DNA of 46,866 bases from an uncultured Dehalococcoidales bacterium (GCA_964616615.1 CAZTRJ010000003.1:1-46866), one strand, 5' to 3'. Counted from the first letter of the stretch, positions 1,103 to 13,607 are shown. Translations and numbers: made by a program. The notes: generated from the sequence alone by a model not told the origin.

Positions 1103-1157
1103 ACTTGCTTTTTTCTCCAATTCCCTGTATTATATGTAAGCAAAATTGAACAGGTAA

Positions 1158-1281
1158 CCTGGAGGAGTCTGAACTGAGTTCAGGCATAATCGGGGAGCAA
1201 GTCGGTGCAAATCCGACACAGTACCGCCTGCTGTGACTGGTAGTTACATTCTATCAGAAGTCAGAACACCGACCTCCAGTA
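1158..1281 (+). promoter_or_regulatory. cobalamin riboswitch aptamer (copy 1)
   Basis: P1 pairing CTGGAGG (1160-1166) with CCTCCAG (1273-1279). Conserved core GGTGCAAATCC, ACCGCCTGCTGT and a B12-box-like AGTCAGAACACCGACC. Lies directly upstream of btuF. Confidence 0.75.
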
Positions 1282-1340
1282 GCCTTAAACCTCCGCGGAG
1301 CAAGGGGGTGGGGTTTATTTATTGACTAAAACAGTGCGTA

Positions 1341-4403: not shown

Positions 4404-5135
4404 ATGAAACATGCCGTTTTCAAGGAAGGAGACCTCGTAGTATGTCTTGGTGGAGGCTATTTCGGGACCAAAGCAGCCAGGCTGGGCAGGGAATGTAATG
4501 CCAGGACACTGATAATAGATACCAATCCAGATTGCGCCGCCAGGGACATAGCCGATGTTGTATTGACCGAACCAGGGACTATAAAAGCGGGACAAGTATC
4601 GCTCATCGTTGGTGATGCCATGGAAATCCTGTTCGGCATCCTGGAAGGAGAAGTGCCGCAGTGGATTATCCCGGCTGTCCCCGGGCATTCACTGGGTAAA
4701 TTCATCAACAGTTGGTTAAGGGCAAAGGGGCTTAAAGTGGCTAGCGGTGGAGATTTGTTGATTGAGGTTCTAGCCAGTTTACCTCGCAGATTGGTCCTGA
4801 GCGTAGATGAGAAGTCCGGGATTATTATATCTAGTTATATGGCGAAGGAGCTAAGGTGCGATACCAACTGTGCTCAACCCAGAATATGCCCGGTGACCAA
4901 GCACAAGAAGCCAGCTCCCATGTATGAACTTCTTGAATTCTCGGTCTCCGGGGCAGTGGATTACTATAAGATATTTGTCAGTCATCAATTTGATGGGGCG
5001 GGAGGAGTAGTGGGGGCAGAGGTGAAAAAGACATTAAACTATCTGGCAAGCCTCACCCCACCCTACTCATTAGCCATTGGCGTTTCGTGCCGATGCCATG
5101 GTATATTGAGCCTGCTTAAAGTGGAAGGGAATTAG
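4404..5135 (+). CDS. uncharacterised protein with N-terminal Rossmann/pre-ATP-grasp-like domain and Cys motif
   Basis: N-terminus LVVCLGGGYFGTKAARLGRECNARTLIIDTNPDCAA (GxGxxG followed by an acidic beta2 end). It resembles the N-terminus of the PylC in this window (RLGLVGGRLQGIEAAYLAREAGYQVTVIDRDPEAPA). Later motif CDTNCAQPRICP. Sits between btuD and cbiB. Confidence 0.4.
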   Translation: MKHAVFKEGDLVVCLGGGYFGTKAARLGRECNARTLIIDTNPDCAARDIADVVLTEPGTIKAGQVSLIVGDAMEILFGILEGEVPQWIIPAVPGHSLGKFINSWLRAKGLKVASGGDLLIEVLASLPRRLVLSVDEKSGIIISSYMAKELRCDTNCAQPRICPVTKHKKPAPMYELLEFSVSGAVDYYKIFVSHQFDGAGGVVGAEVKKTLNYLASLTPPYSLAIGVSCRCHGILSLLKVEGN

Positions 5136-5173: not shown

Positions 5174-6106
5174 ATGGATATTTTGATAATACTGGCTCTG
5201 GCACTGGCTATTGACTTGGTCCTGGGTGAACCGCCCCGCGCCATCCACCCTGTGGTATGGATGGGGAAGGTCATTGCCTTTCTGGGGAGGGGTGGTGTTA
5301 ACCACCGTCCGCGGGTTCAGTTTATCTATGGGGTTGGGATAACCTTGGTCGCCACCGGATTATTTGTCGCTCCGACCTATTTTATACTCTTCTATCTAAA
5401 AAACCTTAACTTTGTCGCCTATGTAATTATGGGGGGAGTGCTCCTCAAATCCACCTTTAGTTTAAGGGAACTGCGACAAGCGGCGCTTAAGGTCAAGGGG
5501 CTTCTAATGAATGATGAGCTGAATGAAGCACGCTTTGCCCTGCGCTCATTAGTCAGTCGTGATACCAAGAATTTGCCCCAGCCACTATTAGTGTCGGCTG
5601 CCGTGGAATCAGTGGCTGAGAGCACCTGTGACAGCTTTGTGGCTCCCCTATTTTACTTTCTTCTCCTCGGGGTGCCTGGAGCTATAGCCTACAGGATAGT
5701 AAATACTGCTGACACCATGATAGGTTACCATGGGCAATGGGAATATGTAGGTAAGTTTGCCGCCAGGCTGGATGATGTGATTAGTTTTATCCCGGCAAGG
5801 CTCACCGCCTTAATGATAGTTATCGCCGCCGGGCTATGCCAAAAGGACATATCAGGGGCGTGGCGAGTTATGCTTCGTGACCACAATAAGACACAAAGCC
5901 CCAATGCCGGCTGGGCAATGAGCGCTGCTGCCGGCAGCCTGGGGGTGCAGCTAGAAAAGATAGGACACTACAAATTAGGTGATAACCACTACCCACTGTC
6001 ACCGGAGACAATTGGCGCTTCGCTTCAGGTGATGGTGGTAGTGGCTTTGCTGTGGAGCCTGACATGTATCTCAGTGGGGGTGATTCGCTTTGTCGTTACT
6101 ACCTAA
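5174..6106 (+). CDS. cbiB: adenosylcobinamide-phosphate synthase (CbiB/CobD family)
   Basis: Family-typical N-terminus ILALALAIDLVLGEPPRAIHPVVWMGK, membrane profile, and the SPNAGW motif. Confidence 0.85.
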   Translation: MDILIILALALAIDLVLGEPPRAIHPVVWMGKVIAFLGRGGVNHRPRVQFIYGVGITLVATGLFVAPTYFILFYLKNLNFVAYVIMGGVLLKSTFSLRELRQAALKVKGLLMNDELNEARFALRSLVSRDTKNLPQPLLVSAAVESVAESTCDSFVAPLFYFLLLGVPGAIAYRIVNTADTMIGYHGQWEYVGKFAARLDDVISFIPARLTALMIVIAAGLCQKDISGAWRVMLRDHNKTQSPNAGWAMSAAAGSLGVQLEKIGHYKLGDNHYPLSPETIGASLQVMVVVALLWSLTCISVGVIRFVVTT

Positions 6107-7208
6107 ACCTAAACCCGAAGTAGAAAATCTGAAAGTTTGTCCTCATGGCGGACCAAATTGGGCTGAGCTTGAGACTATGGGGCTTACTCCCGAGGAAGTT
6201 ATTGATTTTAGTGTCAACTCCAACCCCTTCCCACCCCCGTCGGGGATAAAGGAGATTTTTGACACCGTTGTCATTGACCGTTACCCTGACTCTGAGTCAA
6301 CCGAGCTTAAGCATTGCCTCTCAGAAAAACTAGGGGTAGCTCCCGATAATATCCTGGCCGGAAGCGGCTCCATGGAACTCATCAGGCTCATTGCTACCAC
6401 TTACTTTAGACGTGGCGATTCAGTATTAATCCTGGAGCCAACCTTCGGTGAATATGAGATTGCCTGCCAGGTGGTCGGCGCCAAGATTCTCAAGCAATGG
6501 GGAAAAGCTGAAGACTACTTTGCTTTGAGGATGGAGGAGACAGTAAGCACCATCAGGCGACGCCACCCCAGAGGAATTTTTATCTGTAATCCCAATAACC
6601 CCACTGGTCAATACCTTTCTCAGCCACAGGTCGAGATGGTCTTAGATTCCAGCAGGGATAGTTTGCTCATCCTGGATGAGGCATACATTGCTTTTACTGA
6701 GGGAAGCTGGCTCTCCACCGACCTGATTTCCCGAGGCAATGTGATTATTCTGCGTTCTATGACTAAGGACTATGCTTTAGCTGGACTGCGTTTGGGCTAC
6801 GCCATCGCCAGTCAGGAGATTATCCAGAATCTACGTAAGGTCTGTTCCCCGTGGAATGTCAATGTAGTGGCTCAAAAGGCAGGGGTTATCGCGCTAAAGA
6901 ATACCGAGCATCTCAAGCGGTGTGAGTCCAAGATTAGGCAGGCAAAGCAGTTCCTCACCGACGAGCTCTGCCGACTCGGCTTCACTGTAGTTCCATCAAA
7001 GACAAATTTCTTCCTGGTAGAAGTAGCCAATGCCAAAGCTTTTCACACCGCCTTGCTCCGACAGGGCATGCTGGTTCGCGATTGCACTTCTTTTGGCTTG
7101 CCCCAGTATATACGTATTGCGCCGCGGACCATGCCTGAGTGCCAGAAGCTCATCGCTACCATAGAAGCGTTGAAGAGCAAGGGAGAACTAGGTGCCACTA
7201 CTGGTTGA
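6090..7208 (+). CDS. cobD: L-threonine-O-3-phosphate decarboxylase (class I/II aminotransferase fold; HisC-like alternative not excluded)
   Basis: NPNNPTG motif, PLP-lysine context SMTKDYALAGLRLGY, TTG start overlapping the cbiB end. Assignment rests on the cbiB-adjacent operon context. Confidence 0.7.
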   Translation: MSLLPKPKPEVENLKVCPHGGPNWAELETMGLTPEEVIDFSVNSNPFPPPSGIKEIFDTVVIDRYPDSESTELKHCLSEKLGVAPDNILAGSGSMELIRLIATTYFRRGDSVLILEPTFGEYEIACQVVGAKILKQWGKAEDYFALRMEETVSTIRRRHPRGIFICNPNNPTGQYLSQPQVEMVLDSSRDSLLILDEAYIAFTEGSWLSTDLISRGNVIILRSMTKDYALAGLRLGYAIASQEIIQNLRKVCSPWNVNVVAQKAGVIALKNTEHLKRCESKIRQAKQFLTDELCRLGFTVVPSKTNFFLVEVANAKAFHTALLRQGMLVRDCTSFGLPQYIRIAPRTMPECQKLIATIEALKSKGELGATTG

Positions 7209-7233
7209 CAAATTCTAAATTATTTGATAAACT
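7205..7233 (+). promoter_or_regulatory. sigma70-like promoter for the second cob operon
   Basis: TTGACA (7205-7210, overlapping the cobD stop), a 17-nt spacer, then TAAACT (7228-7233). Confidence 0.5.
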
Positions 7234-7255
7234 ATATTGACTCTTTAACAAGAGC

Positions 7256-7429
7256 ACTTGTCGGTGCTTTGAAATAGAAGCTTAAAAGGGAAACCCGTGA
7301 AAGTCGGGTGCGGTCCCGCCGCTGTGATTAGGGACGAAACTTGATACAGTGCCACTGTTTTGCTTGAGCAAAACGGGAAGGCGTCAAGGAGTAGGATGAT
7401 CTAAGAGCCAGAAGACCTGCCAACAAGTT
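7256..7429 (+). promoter_or_regulatory. cobalamin riboswitch aptamer (copy 2)
   Basis: Near-consensus elements: AAAAGGGAAACCCGTGAAAGTCGGGTGCGGTCCCGCCGCTGTGA, GCCACTG, GGGAAGGC and B12 box AGAGCCAGAAGACCTGCC. P1 pairs ACTTGTCGG with CCAACAAGT. Confidence 0.9.
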
Positions 7430-7469
7430 GATTAAGCCTCGGGGAAAAGGGCTAAGGGAGATGGCAAAT

Positions 7470-7499
7470 CCCTAAGCCGAGTTTGGTTTAGGGGTTTTT
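7470..7499 (+). terminator. intrinsic terminator 1 after riboswitch 2
   Basis: CCCTAA(G)...TTAGGG(G) hairpin followed by TTTTT. Upstream CTAAGGGA (7451-7458) can pair with TCCCTAAG (7468-7475) as an alternative helix. Confidence 0.6.
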
Positions 7500-7515
7500 C
7501 TATTATTGGATGAAA

Positions 7516-7548
7516 ATCCCTAAGCTAAATCTAGTTTAGGGATTTTTT
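7516..7548 (+). terminator. intrinsic terminator 2 (near-duplicate of terminator 1)
   Basis: ATCCCTAA ... TTAGGGAT hairpin followed by TTTTTT. It shares the AATCCCTAAGC stem sequence with terminator 1. Confidence 0.55.
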
Positions 7549-7570
7549 GTATTTACTGGAGGGACAGCTT

Positions 7571-8608
7571 ATGAAGGCAGCTATCTTGAAAGCCCCCGGG
7601 CACCTGATGCTAGACGAAGTGGCAACGCCACTATGCCCCGATGGTGGTCTTGTGGTGAAAACTCAGGCATGTTCTATCTGCACTACCGATGTAAAGATGT
7701 TCCAGCGCGGTCACCGGGATGCGAACTACCCCCGCATACTGGGACATGAAGTCACGGGGGTGGTGGTTGAGAGCCGCGCCCAGGGTGACATGTTCCAAGC
7801 CGGTGATAAGGTACAGATTTTCCCTGGCATATGCTGTGGCCACTGCCCATTCTGTCGGCGGGGTATCGACAACCAGTGTGAGCACATCGGAATTATTGGT
7901 TTTAATCATGACGGCGGTTTTGCCGAGTTCCTGCTAGTGCCGCCGCAGAGTGTTGCTGGTAACGGAGTGAACCTTATACCTGGGGGAGTTAGCTATGAAG
8001 AGGCAGCCTTGACCGAGCCGTTAGCCAGTTGCCTAAATGGACAGCAACTAGCCGGTGTCGCTGAGGGTGATACCGTGCTCATCTTAGGTGCCGGGCCAAT
8101 AGGTCTGCTTCACGCCATGCTGGCTCGGGCCAGGGGAGCCTCACGAGTGCTGGTTGCTGAACGCTTACCGACTCGCCTTTCAATGACCGGGCGGGCAGAC
8201 ATTGACCGAAAGATTGACATAAATGGGGAGAGTATCAAGGCAGTAGTTAACGAGGAGACCGGAGGCCGAGGGGTTGATGTCATCCTCATCGCCAGTTCCG
8301 AGGTTATGGTCGCTTCCTTACCCGAGCTTTTAGCCCCCAGGGGACGGCTCTGTCTCTTTTCAGGATTGCCCCCGGAGACAGCTCAAATTCCTCTAGATAC
8401 CAACCTGATGCACTATAGGGAACTCACCATCGTTGGTGCTTACGGCTCTACTGCCGCCCAGAACACAGCGGCGCTCAGATTGATAGCTTCGGGCAAGGTG
8501 CCGGTTGCCTGGCTTATCACCAAGCGACTACCGCTGGATGAAATAGAGGAGGGCATGGAATATGTGGCAAATCGGGAAGGACTGAAAGCCGTCATCACAT
8601 TCTTTTAA
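7571..8608 (+). CDS. Zn-dependent medium-chain dehydrogenase (L-threonine 3-dehydrogenase / sorbitol dehydrogenase-like)
   Basis: Catalytic Zn ligand context CSICTTD and GHEVTGVV. Structural Zn cluster CGHCPFCRRGIDNQC. NAD fold ILGAGPIGLL. The start is set at ATG 7571 (MKAAILK) behind GGAGGG. Confidence 0.8.
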   Translation: MKAAILKAPGHLMLDEVATPLCPDGGLVVKTQACSICTTDVKMFQRGHRDANYPRILGHEVTGVVVESRAQGDMFQAGDKVQIFPGICCGHCPFCRRGIDNQCEHIGIIGFNHDGGFAEFLLVPPQSVAGNGVNLIPGGVSYEEAALTEPLASCLNGQQLAGVAEGDTVLILGAGPIGLLHAMLARARGASRVLVAERLPTRLSMTGRADIDRKIDINGESIKAVVNEETGGRGVDVILIASSEVMVASLPELLAPRGRLCLFSGLPPETAQIPLDTNLMHYRELTIVGAYGSTAAQNTAALRLIASGKVPVAWLITKRLPLDEIEEGMEYVANREGLKAVITFF

Positions 8609-8622
8609 GAAAGGAGGCTAAA

Positions 8623-9756
8623 ATGTTGGACGACAAGCTAAAGGTTTTTGGCACCAGGGTGGCTGCTATCGTCACTGGAAAAGACCTTGCCCGTGGAGAG
8701 GCGAAGGACATGTTTCGCCAGGTGCTCTTAAACGAGCAGCCAGATTTGCAGCAAGGGGCTTTCCTGATAGCACTCACCGCCAAGGGGGAGACGGCTGAGG
8801 AAATTGCCGGCGCCTGGGAGGCTATCTATGAGCTTGATACCGAAAAGGTTTCACCGATAGTGCCCGGACCTCTGGTTGAAAACTGCGGCACCGGTATGGA
8901 TTCGTTCAAGACTTTTAATATCAGCACCGCCGCTGCCATTGTTGCCGCTGCTGGCGGCGTTTACCTGGCCAAGCACGGCGCCAGAGCGCTTACCTCTACC
9001 TGCGGCGCCATTGACATCCTGGAAGCGGTAGGGGTTGATGTTGAGTGTGACCTTGACATTGTTAAGCAGAGCATTGAAAAGGTGGGAATTGGTATCTTCA
9101 ATGGCATGAGTCCTAAAGTCCATCCCCAGGCGCTGTTCCGTATCCTGTCCCAGATTCACTTTGGCACCACCCTGAATATCGCCGGTTCCCTGGCTAATCC
9201 AGCTCTACCCCGCTACGGGGTAAGAGGTGTATACTCCCAAGACCTGGTCGAGCCAGTGGCTCAAGCAATGAGGGAAATCGGCTATATAAAAGCCCTGGTG
9301 GTTCACGGTGGCAACGGGGATGGAATAAAGGGTATGGATGAAATCTCAACCTTGGGGGAGACGGTTATCGCTGAACTGACTGAGAGCGGGGAGATTACAA
9401 CCTACACTATCAGGCCGGAAGACTTCAGTATTCAACGCTCCAGCGGGCATGCCATTCATCCCTTCGCCGACCGGAAGAAGGAAGCATTAGAATTCCTGAG
9501 AATATTAACCGGTTACGACCGCGGCTCAAGGCACGAAATTACCTGCCTTAATGCTGCTCCCATTTTTTACCTGATGGGACAGGCTAAAGGTCTCAGGGAA
9601 GGCTTCATCCTGGCACAAGAGATAATCCAATCAGGTCGGGCTATCACCAAGCTGAGGGAATGGGTAATGGCTCAAAATTCCGACCCCGAGGGTGGACTGA
9701 GGAAACTGGACTGCCTTCTGGAAGAAATCGACGCAGTGAGGAGGCGAGAAGCGTAG
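8623..9756 (+). CDS. glycosyltransferase family 3 protein (anthranilate phosphoribosyltransferase TrpD paralog)
   Basis: TrpD-like core TFNISTAAAIVAAAGGVYLAKHGARALTSTCGAIDILEAVG and NIAGSLANP. The canonical GTGGDG PRPP loop reads GTGMDS. No other trp genes are nearby. Confidence 0.7.
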   Translation: MLDDKLKVFGTRVAAIVTGKDLARGEAKDMFRQVLLNEQPDLQQGAFLIALTAKGETAEEIAGAWEAIYELDTEKVSPIVPGPLVENCGTGMDSFKTFNISTAAAIVAAAGGVYLAKHGARALTSTCGAIDILEAVGVDVECDLDIVKQSIEKVGIGIFNGMSPKVHPQALFRILSQIHFGTTLNIAGSLANPALPRYGVRGVYSQDLVEPVAQAMREIGYIKALVVHGGNGDGIKGMDEISTLGETVIAELTESGEITTYTIRPEDFSIQRSSGHAIHPFADRKKEALEFLRILTGYDRGSRHEITCLNAAPIFYLMGQAKGLREGFILAQEIIQSGRAITKLREWVMAQNSDPEGGLRKLDCLLEEIDAVRRREA

Positions 9757-9836: not shown

Positions 9837-10901
9837 ATGTCAGAACTTCTGTCCAATACAATCGGAATGATAAAACCTCTGGATAAAGAGGTAATGGCTC
9901 AGGCTCAAGCCCGGCAGGACATGCTGACCAAACCGCAAGGCAGCCTGGGCAGGCTGGAAGAACTATCTATCCAACTGGCTGGTATTCAAGGTAAGCCTCT
10001 ACCTCAAATCAGGCACAAAGCCATTATTACTATGGCTGGTGACCATGGGGTGGTGGCAGAGAAGGTCGGTAACTGGCCGCAGGAGGTTACCGCCCAGATG
10101 GTTTATAATTTCCTCGGTGGTGGAGCCGGGATAAATGTGATTTCCCACCAGGTTGGCACCAGAATTATTGTGGTTGATATGGGGGTGGCATCCGAGCTGG
10201 CACCCGACCCTCATCTGTTATCCAGAAAGGTTGCCCCTGGCACCCGGAATATAGCTACTGGTGCGGCGATGACTGAGGAGCAGGCGGTAACGGCGATAGA
10301 GACTGGAATTGAAATAGTAAAAGACGAGGTGGCTAAGGGTCTGGATATAGTCGGCACTGGCGATATGGGCATCGGTAATACTACCCCCAGTGCCGCTATC
10401 TGTGCCGTCATCACGGGAAAACCAGTGGCCGCGGTGACTGGTAGAGGCACTGGCATAACTGATGAACAGTTGACGCATAAGGTAGAAGTAATAACCAGGG
10501 CTCTGGCGGTAAATCACCCTGACCCCAAACAGCCTTTAACCGTGCTCGCCAAGATAGGTGGCTTTGAGATTGGCGGCTTAGCCGGAGTGATGCTGGGAGC
10601 GGGGGCTCACCGCATTCCGGTAGTTATTGATGGCTTTATATCAGGAGCCGCCGCTCTCATTGCCACTGCGCTAGCACCAGGGTTAAAGGACTACCTCATT
10701 GCCGCCCACCTTTCGGCGGAGTCAGGTCATCGGTTACTACTGGAACATCTTGGGCTCAAGCCCTTGCTCAGTCTGGACATGCGCCTGGGTGAGGGCACCG
10801 GCGCCGCCCTGGGAATATTTCTGGCTGAGACTTCAGCCCGGCTGCTGGCTGAGATGTCCACCTTTGCTGAGGCTGAGGTATCAGAGAAGGAAGAGCAGTA
10901 A
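9837..10901 (+). CDS. cobT: nicotinate-nucleotide:dimethylbenzimidazole phosphoribosyltransferase
   Basis: Family motifs LTKPQGSLGRLEEL, GDMGIGNTT, LGEGTGA. Confidence 0.9.
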   Translation: MSELLSNTIGMIKPLDKEVMAQAQARQDMLTKPQGSLGRLEELSIQLAGIQGKPLPQIRHKAIITMAGDHGVVAEKVGNWPQEVTAQMVYNFLGGGAGINVISHQVGTRIIVVDMGVASELAPDPHLLSRKVAPGTRNIATGAAMTEEQAVTAIETGIEIVKDEVAKGLDIVGTGDMGIGNTTPSAAICAVITGKPVAAVTGRGTGITDEQLTHKVEVITRALAVNHPDPKQPLTVLAKIGGFEIGGLAGVMLGAGAHRIPVVIDGFISGAAALIATALAPGLKDYLIAAHLSAESGHRLLLEHLGLKPLLSLDMRLGEGTGAALGIFLAETSARLLAEMSTFAEAEVSEKEEQ

Positions 10902-10903
10902 AG

Positions 10904-11683
10904 TTGGCGTTACTGGCCGCAATTCGGTTTCTAACCAGTATACCATTGCCCTGGGGGCGTGACGCTAGTCAGGAGGAATTTGTCCGCTCCGTGGGTTATT
11001 ACCCCGTGGTCGGCTTGGTTATTGGTCTAATTCTAGCCGGGCTCAGTTGGCTTTTGAGGCTTATTTTACCTTCGGCGGTAGTTAATGTGGTGCTGATTGT
11101 TTATCTAGTGATAATTAGTGGCGCATTGCACCTAGATGGCTTCGTTGATACCTGTGACGGGATAGGTGGTCACAAGACTCCTGAAGAAAGATGGCAGGTA
11201 ATGCGTGACAGTCGGGTTGGCGGTTTTGGTGTTATTGGCGCCTGCTGCCTAATCCTGGCTAAATATATCTCACTGAATAGTGTGCCCGAGCCTTTACTAA
11301 TGTCGACTCTGGTGCTTATGCCGGTAATAAGTCGCTGGGCAATGGTCTATGCTATTTGTGCCTATCCTTCGGCCAGCCCATCAGGTTTAGGGAAGGAGCG
11401 TAAGCAGGCTTCTGACTGGACAAGGTTTACCATGGCTACATTCATAACCCTGACAATAGCTATCGGTCTGGCTTGGCTGGCAAACATAAACTACTTCTAT
11501 CTGGTAGAACCTGCTATAATAGTTAGCATCTGGGTCATAGTGATAATCATGGGAGCCTATTTCAAGCGTAAGTTTTCTGGTCTTACTGGTGACACCTACG
11601 GGGCTATAAATGAGGTAGCCGAGGTCTGCGTCCTAATTATTGTAGTCCTGCTGGCTCACAACCAGTGGTTGGGATTAACCTAG
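10904..11683 (+). CDS. cobS: adenosylcobinamide-GDP ribazoletransferase (cobalamin synthase)
   Basis: Membrane protein with FLTSIPLP and HLDGFVDTCDG motifs. TTG start 2 nt after the cobT stop. Confidence 0.85.
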   Translation: MALLAAIRFLTSIPLPWGRDASQEEFVRSVGYYPVVGLVIGLILAGLSWLLRLILPSAVVNVVLIVYLVIISGALHLDGFVDTCDGIGGHKTPEERWQVMRDSRVGGFGVIGACCLILAKYISLNSVPEPLLMSTLVLMPVISRWAMVYAICAYPSASPSGLGKERKQASDWTRFTMATFITLTIAIGLAWLANINYFYLVEPAIIVSIWVIVIIMGAYFKRKFSGLTGDTYGAINEVAEVCVLIIVVLLAHNQWLGLT

Positions 11684-11696
11684 TTCGGAGGTATAA

Positions 11697-12302
11697 TTGT
11701 CTAGACTATTTCTGGTAAGACACGGTGATACCGAAGCAGGCAGTGGTCTAAGGTACTGGGGGCAGAGTGATGTTAAGCTGAGCGCCCTCGGACTCAGGCA
11801 GGCTGAGAGCTTGCGCCACCGACTGGCAACACAGAAGATTGATGCTATCTATACCAGTAACCTGATGCGGGCTTCAGTAACGGCTAAGACCATTGCCTCC
11901 GAGCACCAGCTGGATGTTACCACCTGTGCCGAGCTGAACGAAGTTAACTTCGGCAAGGTTGAGGGGCTGACATTTGACGAGGTTAGCCAGCTTTACCCCG
12001 AGGTAGCTCAAACCTGGGCTAGCCGGAGCCTCAGTCTTTCGTTTCCCGATGGCGAAAACTTTGATAGGTTTAATAACCGGGTAAGTAAATTCTTAAGCCG
12101 ACTGGAGAAACATACTCCGGAGGAAGCGATACTTATTGTGGCTCACGCCGGACCGCTGCGACTGCTGTTATGCCATATTCTAGGCCTGGAGTTATGTCAC
12201 TGGCGGCAGTTTCGTCTTGATTTAGCTTCGCTCAGTATAGTGGAAACCCATTCCCAGGGAGCAATAGTGAGCCTATTAAACGATGTTTCCCATTTAACAT
12301 AG
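11697..12302 (+). CDS. cobC: alpha-ribazole phosphatase (histidine phosphatase family)
   Basis: LVRHGDT catalytic motif, VAHAGPLR second His motif, position after cobS. Confidence 0.8.
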   Translation: MSRLFLVRHGDTEAGSGLRYWGQSDVKLSALGLRQAESLRHRLATQKIDAIYTSNLMRASVTAKTIASEHQLDVTTCAELNEVNFGKVEGLTFDEVSQLYPEVAQTWASRSLSLSFPDGENFDRFNNRVSKFLSRLEKHTPEEAILIVAHAGPLRLLLCHILGLELCHWRQFRLDLASLSIVETHSQGAIVSLLNDVSHLT

Positions 12303-12327: not shown

Positions 12328-13014
12328 GTGAGTAATATGAATCAGGTTTTTACCTCGTGGAGCGGGGGCAAAGATAGCTGCTTTGCCTGTTACCGAGCAA
12401 CTATCAACGGTCTAAAAGTTCGCTACCTGGCAAATATGATAACTGATGACGGTAAGCGGTCATGGAGCCACGGACAATCTCCCGAATTACTACAGGTGCA
12501 GTCACAGGCTATAGGAATTCCACTGGTTCAGCATCGGGCTACCAGAGACAACTATGAAGCCGAGTTTAAAAATATGCTCCGCGCCTTCAAGCAGGAGGGG
12601 GTTGACGGGGGTGTCTTTGGCGATATTGACTTTAATGAACACCGAGAATGGATTGAAAGAGTATGCCAGGCAGTAGATATTACCCCCCATTTACCCTTAT
12701 GGGGAGAGAACCAGGAAAAAATACTGAGAGACTTCATAAATTTGGGGTTTGAGACAATTATAGTTGTGACCAAGTCAGACCTGCTTGGTGAAGAGTGGCT
12801 GGGGCGGAAGGTTGACCTGGATTTCTTAAAACATTTAGATGAACTAAGAGAAACAAAGAACATTACTCCCTGCGGTGAATCCGGGGAGTATCATACCTTT
12901 GTTACCGATGGTCCTCTATTTAAGCAGCGGATAGAAATCCTGGAAACGAGAAAGGTTTTTAGAGACGAACACTGGTTTCTAGAGATTTTGGACACTGATT
13001 TGAGAGCCAAGTGA
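12328..13014 (+). CDS. PP-loop ATP pyrophosphatase, Dph6/MJ0570 (diphthine-ammonia ligase-like) family
   Basis: N-terminal SWSGGKDS PP-loop and about 225 aa length typical of the MJ0570-type domain. The start could be ATG 12337. Confidence 0.6.
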   Translation: MSNMNQVFTSWSGGKDSCFACYRATINGLKVRYLANMITDDGKRSWSHGQSPELLQVQSQAIGIPLVQHRATRDNYEAEFKNMLRAFKQEGVDGGVFGDIDFNEHREWIERVCQAVDITPHLPLWGENQEKILRDFINLGFETIIVVTKSDLLGEEWLGRKVDLDFLKHLDELRETKNITPCGESGEYHTFVTDGPLFKQRIEILETRKVFRDEHWFLEILDTDLRAK

Positions 13015-13043: not shown

Positions 13044-13607
13044 ATAAACACTCTAATAATTGGTGGCGCCCGCAGTGGCAAAAGCCATTTTGCCCAGGAG
13101 CTTGCCCTGAAGTCAGGACAATCAGTGCTTTTTGTAGCTACCGCTGAGGCTGGTGATGAAGAAATGCGACAACGCATCGAGCAACACCAGAAGTCAAGAC
13201 CAGCAGCTTGGAGCACCCTTGAAGCTACCACACATATAGGCAGCCAGATTCCCCAGAGACTCGGTGGGGCTAAGGTGGTAATTATAGATTGTATCACCCT
13301 TCTGGTGAATAATACTTTTGGTCAGTATAGCCACCAGAGCGGTGAGCAAATTGATGCCCCCCTTATTGAGGAAAACCTTACTGCTGAGATTAATGAGCTG
13401 GTAGAGTGTATTGACCAGGTTGATGCCAGCTTCATTATCGTTACCAACGAGGTTGGTCTGGGCTTGGTGCCGGCTAATACAGTGGGCAGGCTTTATCGCG
13501 ATTTACTGGGCAGGGCAAACCAAGCCCTGGCACAGCGGGCTGACGAGATTTACCTCATGGTTGCTGGCTTACCGGTGTTGATAAAACCAGCCCAGTATAA
13601 TCTCTAA
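13044..13607 (+). CDS. cobU: adenosylcobinamide kinase / adenosylcobinamide-phosphate guanylyltransferase
   Basis: P-loop IIGGARSGKS is encoded at 13056-13085. This is upstream of the first canonical start (GTG 13125) and downstream of the in-frame TAG at 13041. VTNEVGLGLVP motif. The start is provisionally ATA 13044, behind SD GGGGGTGAGG. Confidence 0.7.
   Translation: MNTLIIGGARSGKSHFAQELALKSGQSVLFVATAEAGDEEMRQRIEQHQKSRPAAWSTLEATTHIGSQIPQRLGGAKVVIIDCITLLVNNTFGQYSHQSGEQIDAPLIEENLTAEINELVECIDQVDASFIIVTNEVGLGLVPANTVGRLYRDLLGRANQALAQRADEIYLMVAGLPVLIKPAQYNL

Follow-up and report, generated by a model that had tools for sequence, protein, structure and literature searches.

A riboswitch-controlled pair of a zinc-dependent dehydrogenase and a TrpD paralog as a likely accessory of lower-ligand activation in cobamide assembly

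An operon of an uncultured Dehalococcoidales bacterium (genome of 1.19 Mb, 96% complete) combines genes for the assembly of the cobamide nucleotide loop with two further genes, one for a zinc-dependent medium-chain dehydrogenase/reductase (MDR) and one for a paralog of the anthranilate phosphoribosyltransferase TrpD. We analysed it within a stretch of 46,866 nt (GCA_964616615.1 CAZTRJ010000003.1:1-46866, hereafter the window), in which positions 7205-9756 would span the leader of a seven-gene nucleotide-loop operon repressed by B12, together with its first two genes. The pair is in all likelihood a dedicated accessory of lower-ligand activation in cobamide assembly and not a part of tryptophan or threonine metabolism. 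Its genes are co-expressed with cobT-cobS-cobC-cobU under predicted repression by B12, the two proteins are obligatorily paired, and the dehydrogenase is recurrently fused to CobT. There is nothing unusual about the riboswitch or the cob genes, and the pair would add a new function to enzyme families and a pathway that are already known.

The assembly of the lower loop of B12 is regarded as a closed pathway consisting of CobU, CobT, CobS and CobC. A conserved, riboswitch-controlled pair that is fused to CobT would mean that a step is missing from this pathway. It would also mean that the current annotation of both proteins, as anthranilate phosphoribosyltransferase and as threonine or alcohol dehydrogenase, mis-states the tryptophan and threonine metabolism in many genomes of anaerobes. 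No description of the dehydrogenase/TrpD-like pair was found in the literature that was searched in full text, and no curated family distinguishing it was found among the Pfam and NCBIfam profiles searched. The sole mention found is in a figure legend on an Antarctic Chlorobium, which lists trpD and a dehydrogenase together with cobalamin genes among the genes of low-coverage genomic regions (PMC8620254).

Conservation of the pair and its linkage to CobT

One genome per species was scanned, which yielded 80 loci with the TrpD paralog, whose open reading frames (ORFs), called mechanically, were clustered; many of the genomes are incomplete and mutually related metagenome-assembled genomes, so that the counts of this survey are not independent of each other. 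At 77 of the 80 loci, the paralog is accompanied by the dehydrogenase, either as an adjoining gene (42 loci) or as part of a protein of approximately 711 amino acids with the Pfam domains ADH_N, ADH_zinc_N and DBI_PRT, in which the dehydrogenase is fused to CobT (35 loci). Two of the three exceptions (L008 and L056) are cut by contig ends, and the third is L048. CobT in some form is present at 46 of the 80 loci. A single record (P0123) carries a fusion of the dehydrogenase with the TrpD-like protein; being alone, it could be an assembly artefact.

The pair, which we refer to as the module, occurs in nine bacterial and archaeal lineages, which include Dehalococcoidales, Dehalogenimonas, Desulfobacterales/Desulfobulbales, Acetobacterium and other Bacillota, Bacteroidota, Fibrobacteres, Spirochaetes and Methanomassiliicoccales. 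Protein matches at 60-70% identity add Methanophagales, Syntrophoarchaeum, Methanotrichaceae and Halobacteriota. Of the 301 Dehalococcoidia genomes sampled, 9 have the paralog, namely the window genome and members of two genera of one family, among them Dehalococcoides mccartyi 195. A Syntrophoarchaeum contig has the order bacterial-type CobT, TrpD-like gene, alcohol dehydrogenase (ADH) gene, and contigs of the Methanosaeta type have the order archaeal-type CobT (TIGR00303, 307 bits), ADH gene, TrpD-like gene. Since the pair adjoins CobT of the bacterial as well as the archaeal type, it is linked to the reaction of CobT and not to one CobT lineage.

With cmscan, the riboswitch family RF00174 was found directly upstream of the module at four of seven loci (Acetobacterium, Dehalogenimonas and two Desulfobacterota) and also in three genomes of Dehalococcoidaceae. 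The wider survey used a profile of sequence only, built from eight validated aptamers, which has a match at most 600 nt upstream and on the same strand at 56 of the 71 loci with enough upstream sequence; because this profile ignores structure, the count is a lower bound. Upstream of the two Methanomassiliicoccales loci of the set (L010, L011), no match to the aptamer profile was found. The first-pass annotation of the window had tied the pair to cobT under a B12 riboswitch, and the co-occurrence at 77 of 80 loci together with the 56 upstream aptamer matches strongly bears this out; the association of the pair with cob genes is conserved outside the window.

The CobT domains of 33 fusion proteins form a single clade (SH-aLRT support 94) that comprises members from three phyla and stands apart from the CobTs that occur unfused in these genomes. 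They keep every invariant CobT residue, and the motifs LGEGTG and GxGxGNT are invariant. Most of the fusion genomes possess a second CobT, which in several of them adjoins BzaF or shares the operon of the fusion. The separate clade and the presence of this second CobT indicate that the module brings its own CobT lineage. At two loci from Bacteroidota (L035, L038), the fusion and a stand-alone CobT are encoded in one operon and the copies fall into different clades of the tree; the gene order of L035 is TrpD-like gene, ADH-CobT fusion, cobU, cobT, cobS and cobC.

Other neighbours of the module vary between lineages. In Acetobacterium and its relatives (L044, L039, L052, L053, L055, L060, L062 and L064), the riboswitch operon consists of the dehydrogenase gene, the TrpD-like gene and a gene for a 5'-nucleotidase of PF06189, and there is no cobT near this operon. 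The dedicated nucleotidase hints at the removal of a 5'-phosphate from the product of the module. At two further loci (L022:466-1275 and L024:6867-7679), a gene of the AP_endonuc_2 type (a xylose-isomerase-like TIM barrel) lies directly upstream of the module; the remodelling enzyme CbiR belongs to the same superfamily.

A possible function in such surroundings would be the recovery of bases during cobamide remodelling. The dehydrogenase would act on an alpha-nucleoside or alpha-nucleotide that has been displaced and oxidise its ribose, which would lead to elimination of the base from either anomer, CobT would re-activate the base, and the TrpD-like enzyme would handle the sugar or an unwanted base. 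This would agree with the presence of the module in salvage and remodelling clusters (btuFCD-cbiB-cobD in the window, CbiZ and CbiR-type AP_endonuc_2 proteins at some loci), and the order of the fusion from dehydrogenase to CobT suits a hand-over of the base. However, the module is also found in genomes with Bza-type lower-ligand genes, in the stand-alone riboswitch operon of Acetobacterium and in methanogen-type archaea. Moreover, base recovery leaves phosphoribosyl pyrophosphate (PRPP) without a role and has no precedent among MDR enzymes. We consider it improbable. The term remodelling branch, under which the first-pass annotation had placed the pair, is too narrow in view of the Bza-type genomes and the methanogen-related archaea.

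The riboswitch operon and its surroundings

In the window, seven co-directional genes follow the second of two cobalamin riboswitches that were found by the Rfam search. All the elements previously listed for this region (promoter, riboswitch, two terminators, zinc-dependent ADH, TrpD-like protein with GTGMDS and cobT-cobS-cobC) are in place. The features of the operon are as follows.

7205-7233, plus strand: sigma-70-type promoter-like site (TTGACA, 17 nt, TG-TAAACT; 10/12 matches, extended -10 TG)
7245-7438, plus strand: cobalamin riboswitch aptamer RF00174 (114.3 bits, gathering score 31.5, E-value 4.9e-28, full model 1-189 of 189)
7466-7507, plus strand: terminator hairpin 1 with T-run, expression platform (14-pair stem 7466-7497, then TTCTATTATT)
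7512-7557, plus strand: terminator hairpin 2 with T-run, a near-repeat of hairpin 1 (16-pair stem 7512-7547)
7571-8608, plus strand: module dehydrogenase, zinc-dependent MDR, Tdh/polyol-dehydrogenase-like, NAD-type (ADH_N and ADH_zinc_N)
8623-9756, plus strand: module phosphoribosyltransferase, TrpD-fold paralog with GTGMDS, KHGAR and Leu replacing the anthranilate Arg (Glycos_trans_3N and Glycos_transf_3)
9837-10901, plus strand: cobT, nicotinate mononucleotide (NaMN):base phosphoribosyltransferase (TIGR03160, 460.7 bits, cut-off 319)
10904-11683, plus strand: cobS (PF02654; TIGR00317, 145 bits, cut-off 110)
11697-12302, plus strand: cobC, alpha-ribazole phosphatase (TIGR03162, 171 bits, cut-off 163)
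12328-13014, plus strand: Dph6/MJ0570-like PP-loop ATP pyrophosphatase, an occasional companion of the module (profile matches)
13125-13607, plus strand: cobU, true start probably further upstream (profile match begins at position 27-31)

The assignment of the riboswitch is based on a full aptamer above the gathering score, on the terminator platform and on the cobamide genes downstream (cobT-cobS-cobC-cobU). Promoter-type matches are only about twice as frequent in the region as expected from shuffling (12 against 6.8), so that the promoter at 7205-7233 is weak evidence on its own. The 125-nt hairpin stretch has a folding energy of -45.8 kcal/mol (z -4.0 against shuffles). Its two hairpin units (7466-7547) are near-identical, and the minimum-energy fold pairs them with each other into one long hairpin, not into two stems.

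The other riboswitch of the window (1146-1291, 48.9 bits) is followed by btuF, btuC, btuD, a gene for 243 amino acids, cbiB and cobD. The 243-aa ORF (4404-5135) between btuD and cbiB has no Pfam or NCBIfam match; clusters of the Dehalococcoides type carry cbiZ there, and a homolog of this ORF lies at the equivalent position at locus L005. The aminotransferase at 6090-7208 scores 276.6 bits with the hisC model (cut-off 276.55) and 268 bits with the threonine-phosphate decarboxylase model (cut-off 290.6), and its assignment as cobD follows from its context beside cbiB.

The Dph6/MJ0570-like protein reaches 159 bits with the model for archaeal Dph6 (cut-off 197). Members of this family adjoin the module also at the archaeal loci L003 and L004 (on a contig with CobN) and at the Dehalococcoidales locus L008, and this protein may belong to the module as an occasional third component. 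In the cobU region (13044-13607), the first canonical start, GTG at 13125, would leave out the P-loop. The profile match begins only at position 27-31, so the true start is probably located upstream, at a non-canonical codon.

The cobT of the window is the sole CobT of its genome (one DBI_PRT match). This genome also has NadC, CbiC and one ThiC-family gene (660.7 bits, similar to the presumed ThiC copies of other genomes), and the profile search of it revealed no BluB above the cut-off. The match to CbiC (precorrin-8X methylmutase, 240 bits) lies outside the window in an open frame of 346 amino acids (G000:C29:6314-6898). Unlike Dehalococcoides, the organism may keep a part of the corrin ring pathway.

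The two enzymes of the module

The ORF of the dehydrogenase extends from 7547 to 8608, and its likely start is the ATG at 7571, which is preceded by GGAGGG. It possesses the sites of a zinc-dependent MDR enzyme: C37, H59, E60 and E149 as well as C89/C92/C95/C103 are invariant in the family. Further invariants are GxGxxG, E197 and the family-specific residues R55 and H281-Y282-x-E284. The stand-alone and the CobT-fused dehydrogenases have the zinc ligands, the NAD-type Glu, the Arg of PR(I/V)LGHE near the catalytic zinc and H-Y-x-E in common, and because these include family-specific invariants, both can be regarded as one family. An anionic substrate, phosphorylated or of another kind, is suggested by the invariant Arg next to the zinc.

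The best NCBIfam scores of the dehydrogenase, 189 bits with IolM (cut-off 450) and 175 bits with Tdh, are far below the respective cut-offs. For the Tdh equivalog models TIGR00692/NF003808, the values are 174.6 vs 458 and 169.4 vs 380 bits. Its nearest named relatives of solved structure are archaeal and bacterial L-threonine 3-dehydrogenases (about 146 bits), and the unnamed putative dehydrogenase 4EJ6 scores slightly above these. Overall, the module enzyme resembles L-threonine 3-dehydrogenase and the polyol(-phosphate) dehydrogenases in its catalytic and structural zinc sites, its Rossmann motif GxGxxG and its NAD-type acid, but it differs from them in that it stays below every curated cut-off, has invariants of its own and is fused to CobT at 35 loci.

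The first-pass annotation had suggested that the Tdh-like enzyme may feed an aminoacetone/aminopropanol route. It would oxidise L-threonine and in this way provide aminoacetone or aminopropanol for the linker of the nucleotide loop. The solved relatives just named and the location of cobD and cbiB just upstream in the window are in line with such a function. However, the Tdh models give only 170-175 bits against cut-offs of 380-458, and the dehydrogenase is fused to CobT and never to CbiB or CobD, which weakens the suggestion. In addition, the pair often occurs without a nearby cbiB or cobD, and the TrpD-like partner would be left unexplained. This route is scarcely probable.

The TrpD-like gene carries ENCGTGMDSFKTFNIST (motif GTGMDSFKTFNIST). 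Its product passes the cut-off of TIGR01245 (274.5 bits against 199), and only 31-50 bits are reached with the models for class II nucleoside or AMP phosphorylases, whose cut-offs are 269-571. The canonical trpD of the same genome is encoded on another contig and scores 417 bits with TIGR01245, compared to 275 bits for the paralog. The same holds true in the 30 other module genomes, all of which possess a canonical TrpD (290-427 bits) alongside the paralog (211-285 bits). The gene context of the paralog is not that of a gene for tryptophan synthesis, since it lies in a cob operon and is not the sole TrpD copy. Ordinary tryptophan and threonine metabolism was rejected as the function of the pair on account of the Tdh scores below cut-off and the canonical TrpD in every tested module genome.

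The AlphaFold2 model of the paralog (pLDDT 92) has the fold of TrpD, with Foldseek template modelling (TM) scores of 0.8-0.9 to TrpD structures. Paralog and TrpD (EC 2.4.2.18; TIGR01245; PDB 9UCW, 1ZVW, 1ZYK) thus have the same two-domain fold at 30-37% identity. In order to compare residues, 71 paralogs were aligned with 30 canonical TrpDs of the genomes that carry them. The residues for PRPP and magnesium are kept in the paralogs, namely GTGxD93, N99, S101, T102, H118-G119 and D239-E240, which comprise the GTGxD, NxST and DE motifs of TrpD. In contrast, all 71 paralogs have GTGMD (G92M), whereas 97% of the 30 canonical enzymes have GTGGD. The Asn of KHGNR is mostly replaced; the window protein has Ala (A120), which is nearly invariant in the family alignment. 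Leu175 is invariant in the paralogs at a position where 100% of the canonical enzymes have Arg. The family also differs by a two-residue insert (N160-G161) and an exchange of Ala to S163 in the substrate tunnel, by an exchange of Pro to S189, by a C-terminal extension and by the new invariants K96, R173 and R201. Moreover, the paralog is never located in a trp operon, always occurs beside a true TrpD and stands under B12 control. Since the PRPP and magnesium residues are kept and the determinants for anthranilate are lost, the paralog, as judged from its sequence, is very probably still PRPP-dependent but uses an acceptor other than anthranilate. This residue pattern fits the idea of the first-pass annotation that the paralog may phosphoribosylate an alternative base or precursor.

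One candidate acceptor is nicotinate. Acting as a nicotinate phosphoribosyltransferase, the TrpD-like enzyme could turn the nicotinate that CobT sets free back into NaMN, so that PRPP would be the ultimate ribosyl donor. That the pair is linked to CobT of the bacterial and of the archaeal type speaks for a feature common to the reaction, nicotinate resembles anthranilate, and 14 of the 31 module genomes, including that of the window, are without a match to the PncB family. However, NadC is present in 28 of the 31 module genomes (again including the window genome) and a strong PncB in 8, so that NaMN is available and a shortage of it is ruled out as the reason for the module. Furthermore, cobamides draw only a tiny flux, the paralog has lost the Arg and Asn that bind the carboxylate, and the equally conserved dehydrogenase would be left without a role. 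The regeneration of NaMN is therefore a very unlikely function.

Proposed role and comparison with known systems

Overall, we think it probable that the window holds a B12-repressed nucleotide-loop operon with a two-enzyme module that works together with CobT. At low cobamide levels, the riboswitch would let transcription pass through the terminators. The TrpD-like enzyme would then catalyze the PRPP-dependent N-phosphoribosylation of a neutral aromatic base or amine, most likely of a benzimidazole-type lower ligand that is imported or made by other enzymes and would be captured as a charged ribotide. The dehydrogenase, with the invariant Arg at its catalytic zinc, would oxidise a hydroxyl group of the phosphorylated intermediate, and the base or the ribosyl unit would be handed over to CobT for the formation of the alpha-ribotide, which would be installed by CobS. 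The module alone would make no functional base and would not be required for the supply of NaMN. This specific scheme of capture, oxidation and hand-over is conceivable but doubtful.

Several points weigh against it. The substrate and the order of the steps are guesses. The mapping of the residues A120 and L175 to the anthranilate-binding N138 and R193 of M. tuberculosis TrpD is tentative; PDB titles include the variants N138A, R193L, R194A and P180A of that enzyme. The new invariant Arg and Lys residues of the paralog could mean that the acceptor is anionic rather than neutral. As most of the fusion genomes have a second CobT, the product of the module could differ from the usual alpha-ribotide. 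In the AlphaFold2 model of the dehydrogenase-CobT fusion, the two well-folded domains are connected by a disordered linker of about 38 residues (predicted TM score 0.62), so that a fixed channel or interface is not indicated by the model. Finally, PRPP chemistry leads to beta-ribotides and cobamides need the alpha form, and the hand-over to CobT would therefore need chemistry without precedent in these families. It may be that the dehydrogenase resolves this mismatch, which is speculation.

A more radical solution of the same problem would be a second, NaMN-independent route to the alpha-ribotide. In this case, a benzimidazole would be converted with PRPP to its beta-ribotide by the TrpD-like enzyme. 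A transient oxidation of the ribose by the dehydrogenase would then allow the glycosidic bond to be inverted, or to form again from the alpha side. We regard this route as unlikely. If it were true, it would represent a nucleotide "anomerase" chemistry that is new to both enzyme families and would let cells trap trace bases from the environment.

It might also be assumed that the module synthesizes the lower ligand de novo. The TrpD-like enzyme would ribosylate an aromatic amine, the dehydrogenase would oxidise the ribose-derived chain and thereby drive ring closure, and a base that consists partly of PRPP carbon would go directly to CobT, much as BluB supplies its fused CobT in Propionibacterium. 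The fusion of the dehydrogenase upstream of CobT at 35 loci fits this assumption, and base-making enzymes that are fused to or clustered with CobT have a precedent in BluB-CobT2 and in the bza operon. In addition, no dedicated gene for lower-ligand synthesis was found in the window genome, which has one ThiC-family gene that may encode ThiC or BzaF, and in which BluB does not reach the cut-off. Against this stands the lack of a known source of a suitable amine. There is also no pattern in which module and Bza complement each other: in the Desulfobulbales sample, 7 of 12 genomes with the module have at least two ThiC-family genes, as have 86 of 139 without it. A linkage of the module to Bza had been suspected from a Bza-like ThiC paralog in 19 of 30 module genomes and was dismissed because of these similar rates.

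A further argument against de novo synthesis comes from Dehalococcoides mccartyi, a corrinoid auxotroph that converts non-functional to functional cobamides only if 5,6-dimethylbenzimidazole (DMB) is supplied (PMC8163811; PMC11321594). Strain 195 possesses the paralog (AAW40551.1 / WP_010935931.1) on its chromosome of 1,469,720 bp, where a 107-bit RF00174 riboswitch is followed by the dehydrogenase and the TrpD-like gene, without an adjoining cobT. Since D. mccartyi carries this operon and still needs DMB, the module is no complete pathway to a functional benzimidazole on its own, and the capture or conditioning of a base that is external or separately made becomes more plausible than its synthesis. 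De novo synthesis of the base thus has little probability.

The presence of the module in D. mccartyi 195 makes the question of its function testable in the main model for corrinoid salvage. The answer would also concern the ways in which cobamides are acquired or tailored by bioremediation consortia, methanogens, alkane-oxidising archaea and sulfate reducers.

Compared to the known cluster for corrinoid salvage of the Dehalococcoides type (btuFCD-cbiZ-cbiB-cobD, riboswitch, cobT-cobS-cobC-cobU), the window has the same gene order together with two riboswitches. It differs in the module between riboswitch and cobT, in the PP-loop gene between cobC and cobU and in the 243-aa gene where cbiZ would be expected. 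In D. mccartyi 195, unlike in the window, the module forms a separate riboswitch operon.

The BluB-CobT2 fusion of Propionibacterium freudenreichii and the bza operon (bzaAB/bzaF-cobT-bzaCDE) are similar to the module in that enzymes with an accessory role for the lower ligand are joined to CobT, by fusion or by gene clustering, and are repressed via a cobalamin riboswitch. However, the families are unrelated, as a flavin destructase and radical-SAM ThiC-like enzymes stand against an MDR dehydrogenase and a TrpD-fold phosphoribosyltransferase. Moreover, these systems make the base, whereas the module is present in the DMB-dependent D. mccartyi and occurs with or without Bza. Another comparison can be drawn with ArsAB, which are specialised CobT paralogs for phenolic lower ligands. 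The CobT clade that is fused to the dehydrogenase is likewise a second, specialised lineage beside the housekeeping CobT, but in contrast to ArsAB it keeps all the canonical residues, is joined to a dehydrogenase and has no evident heterodimer partner.

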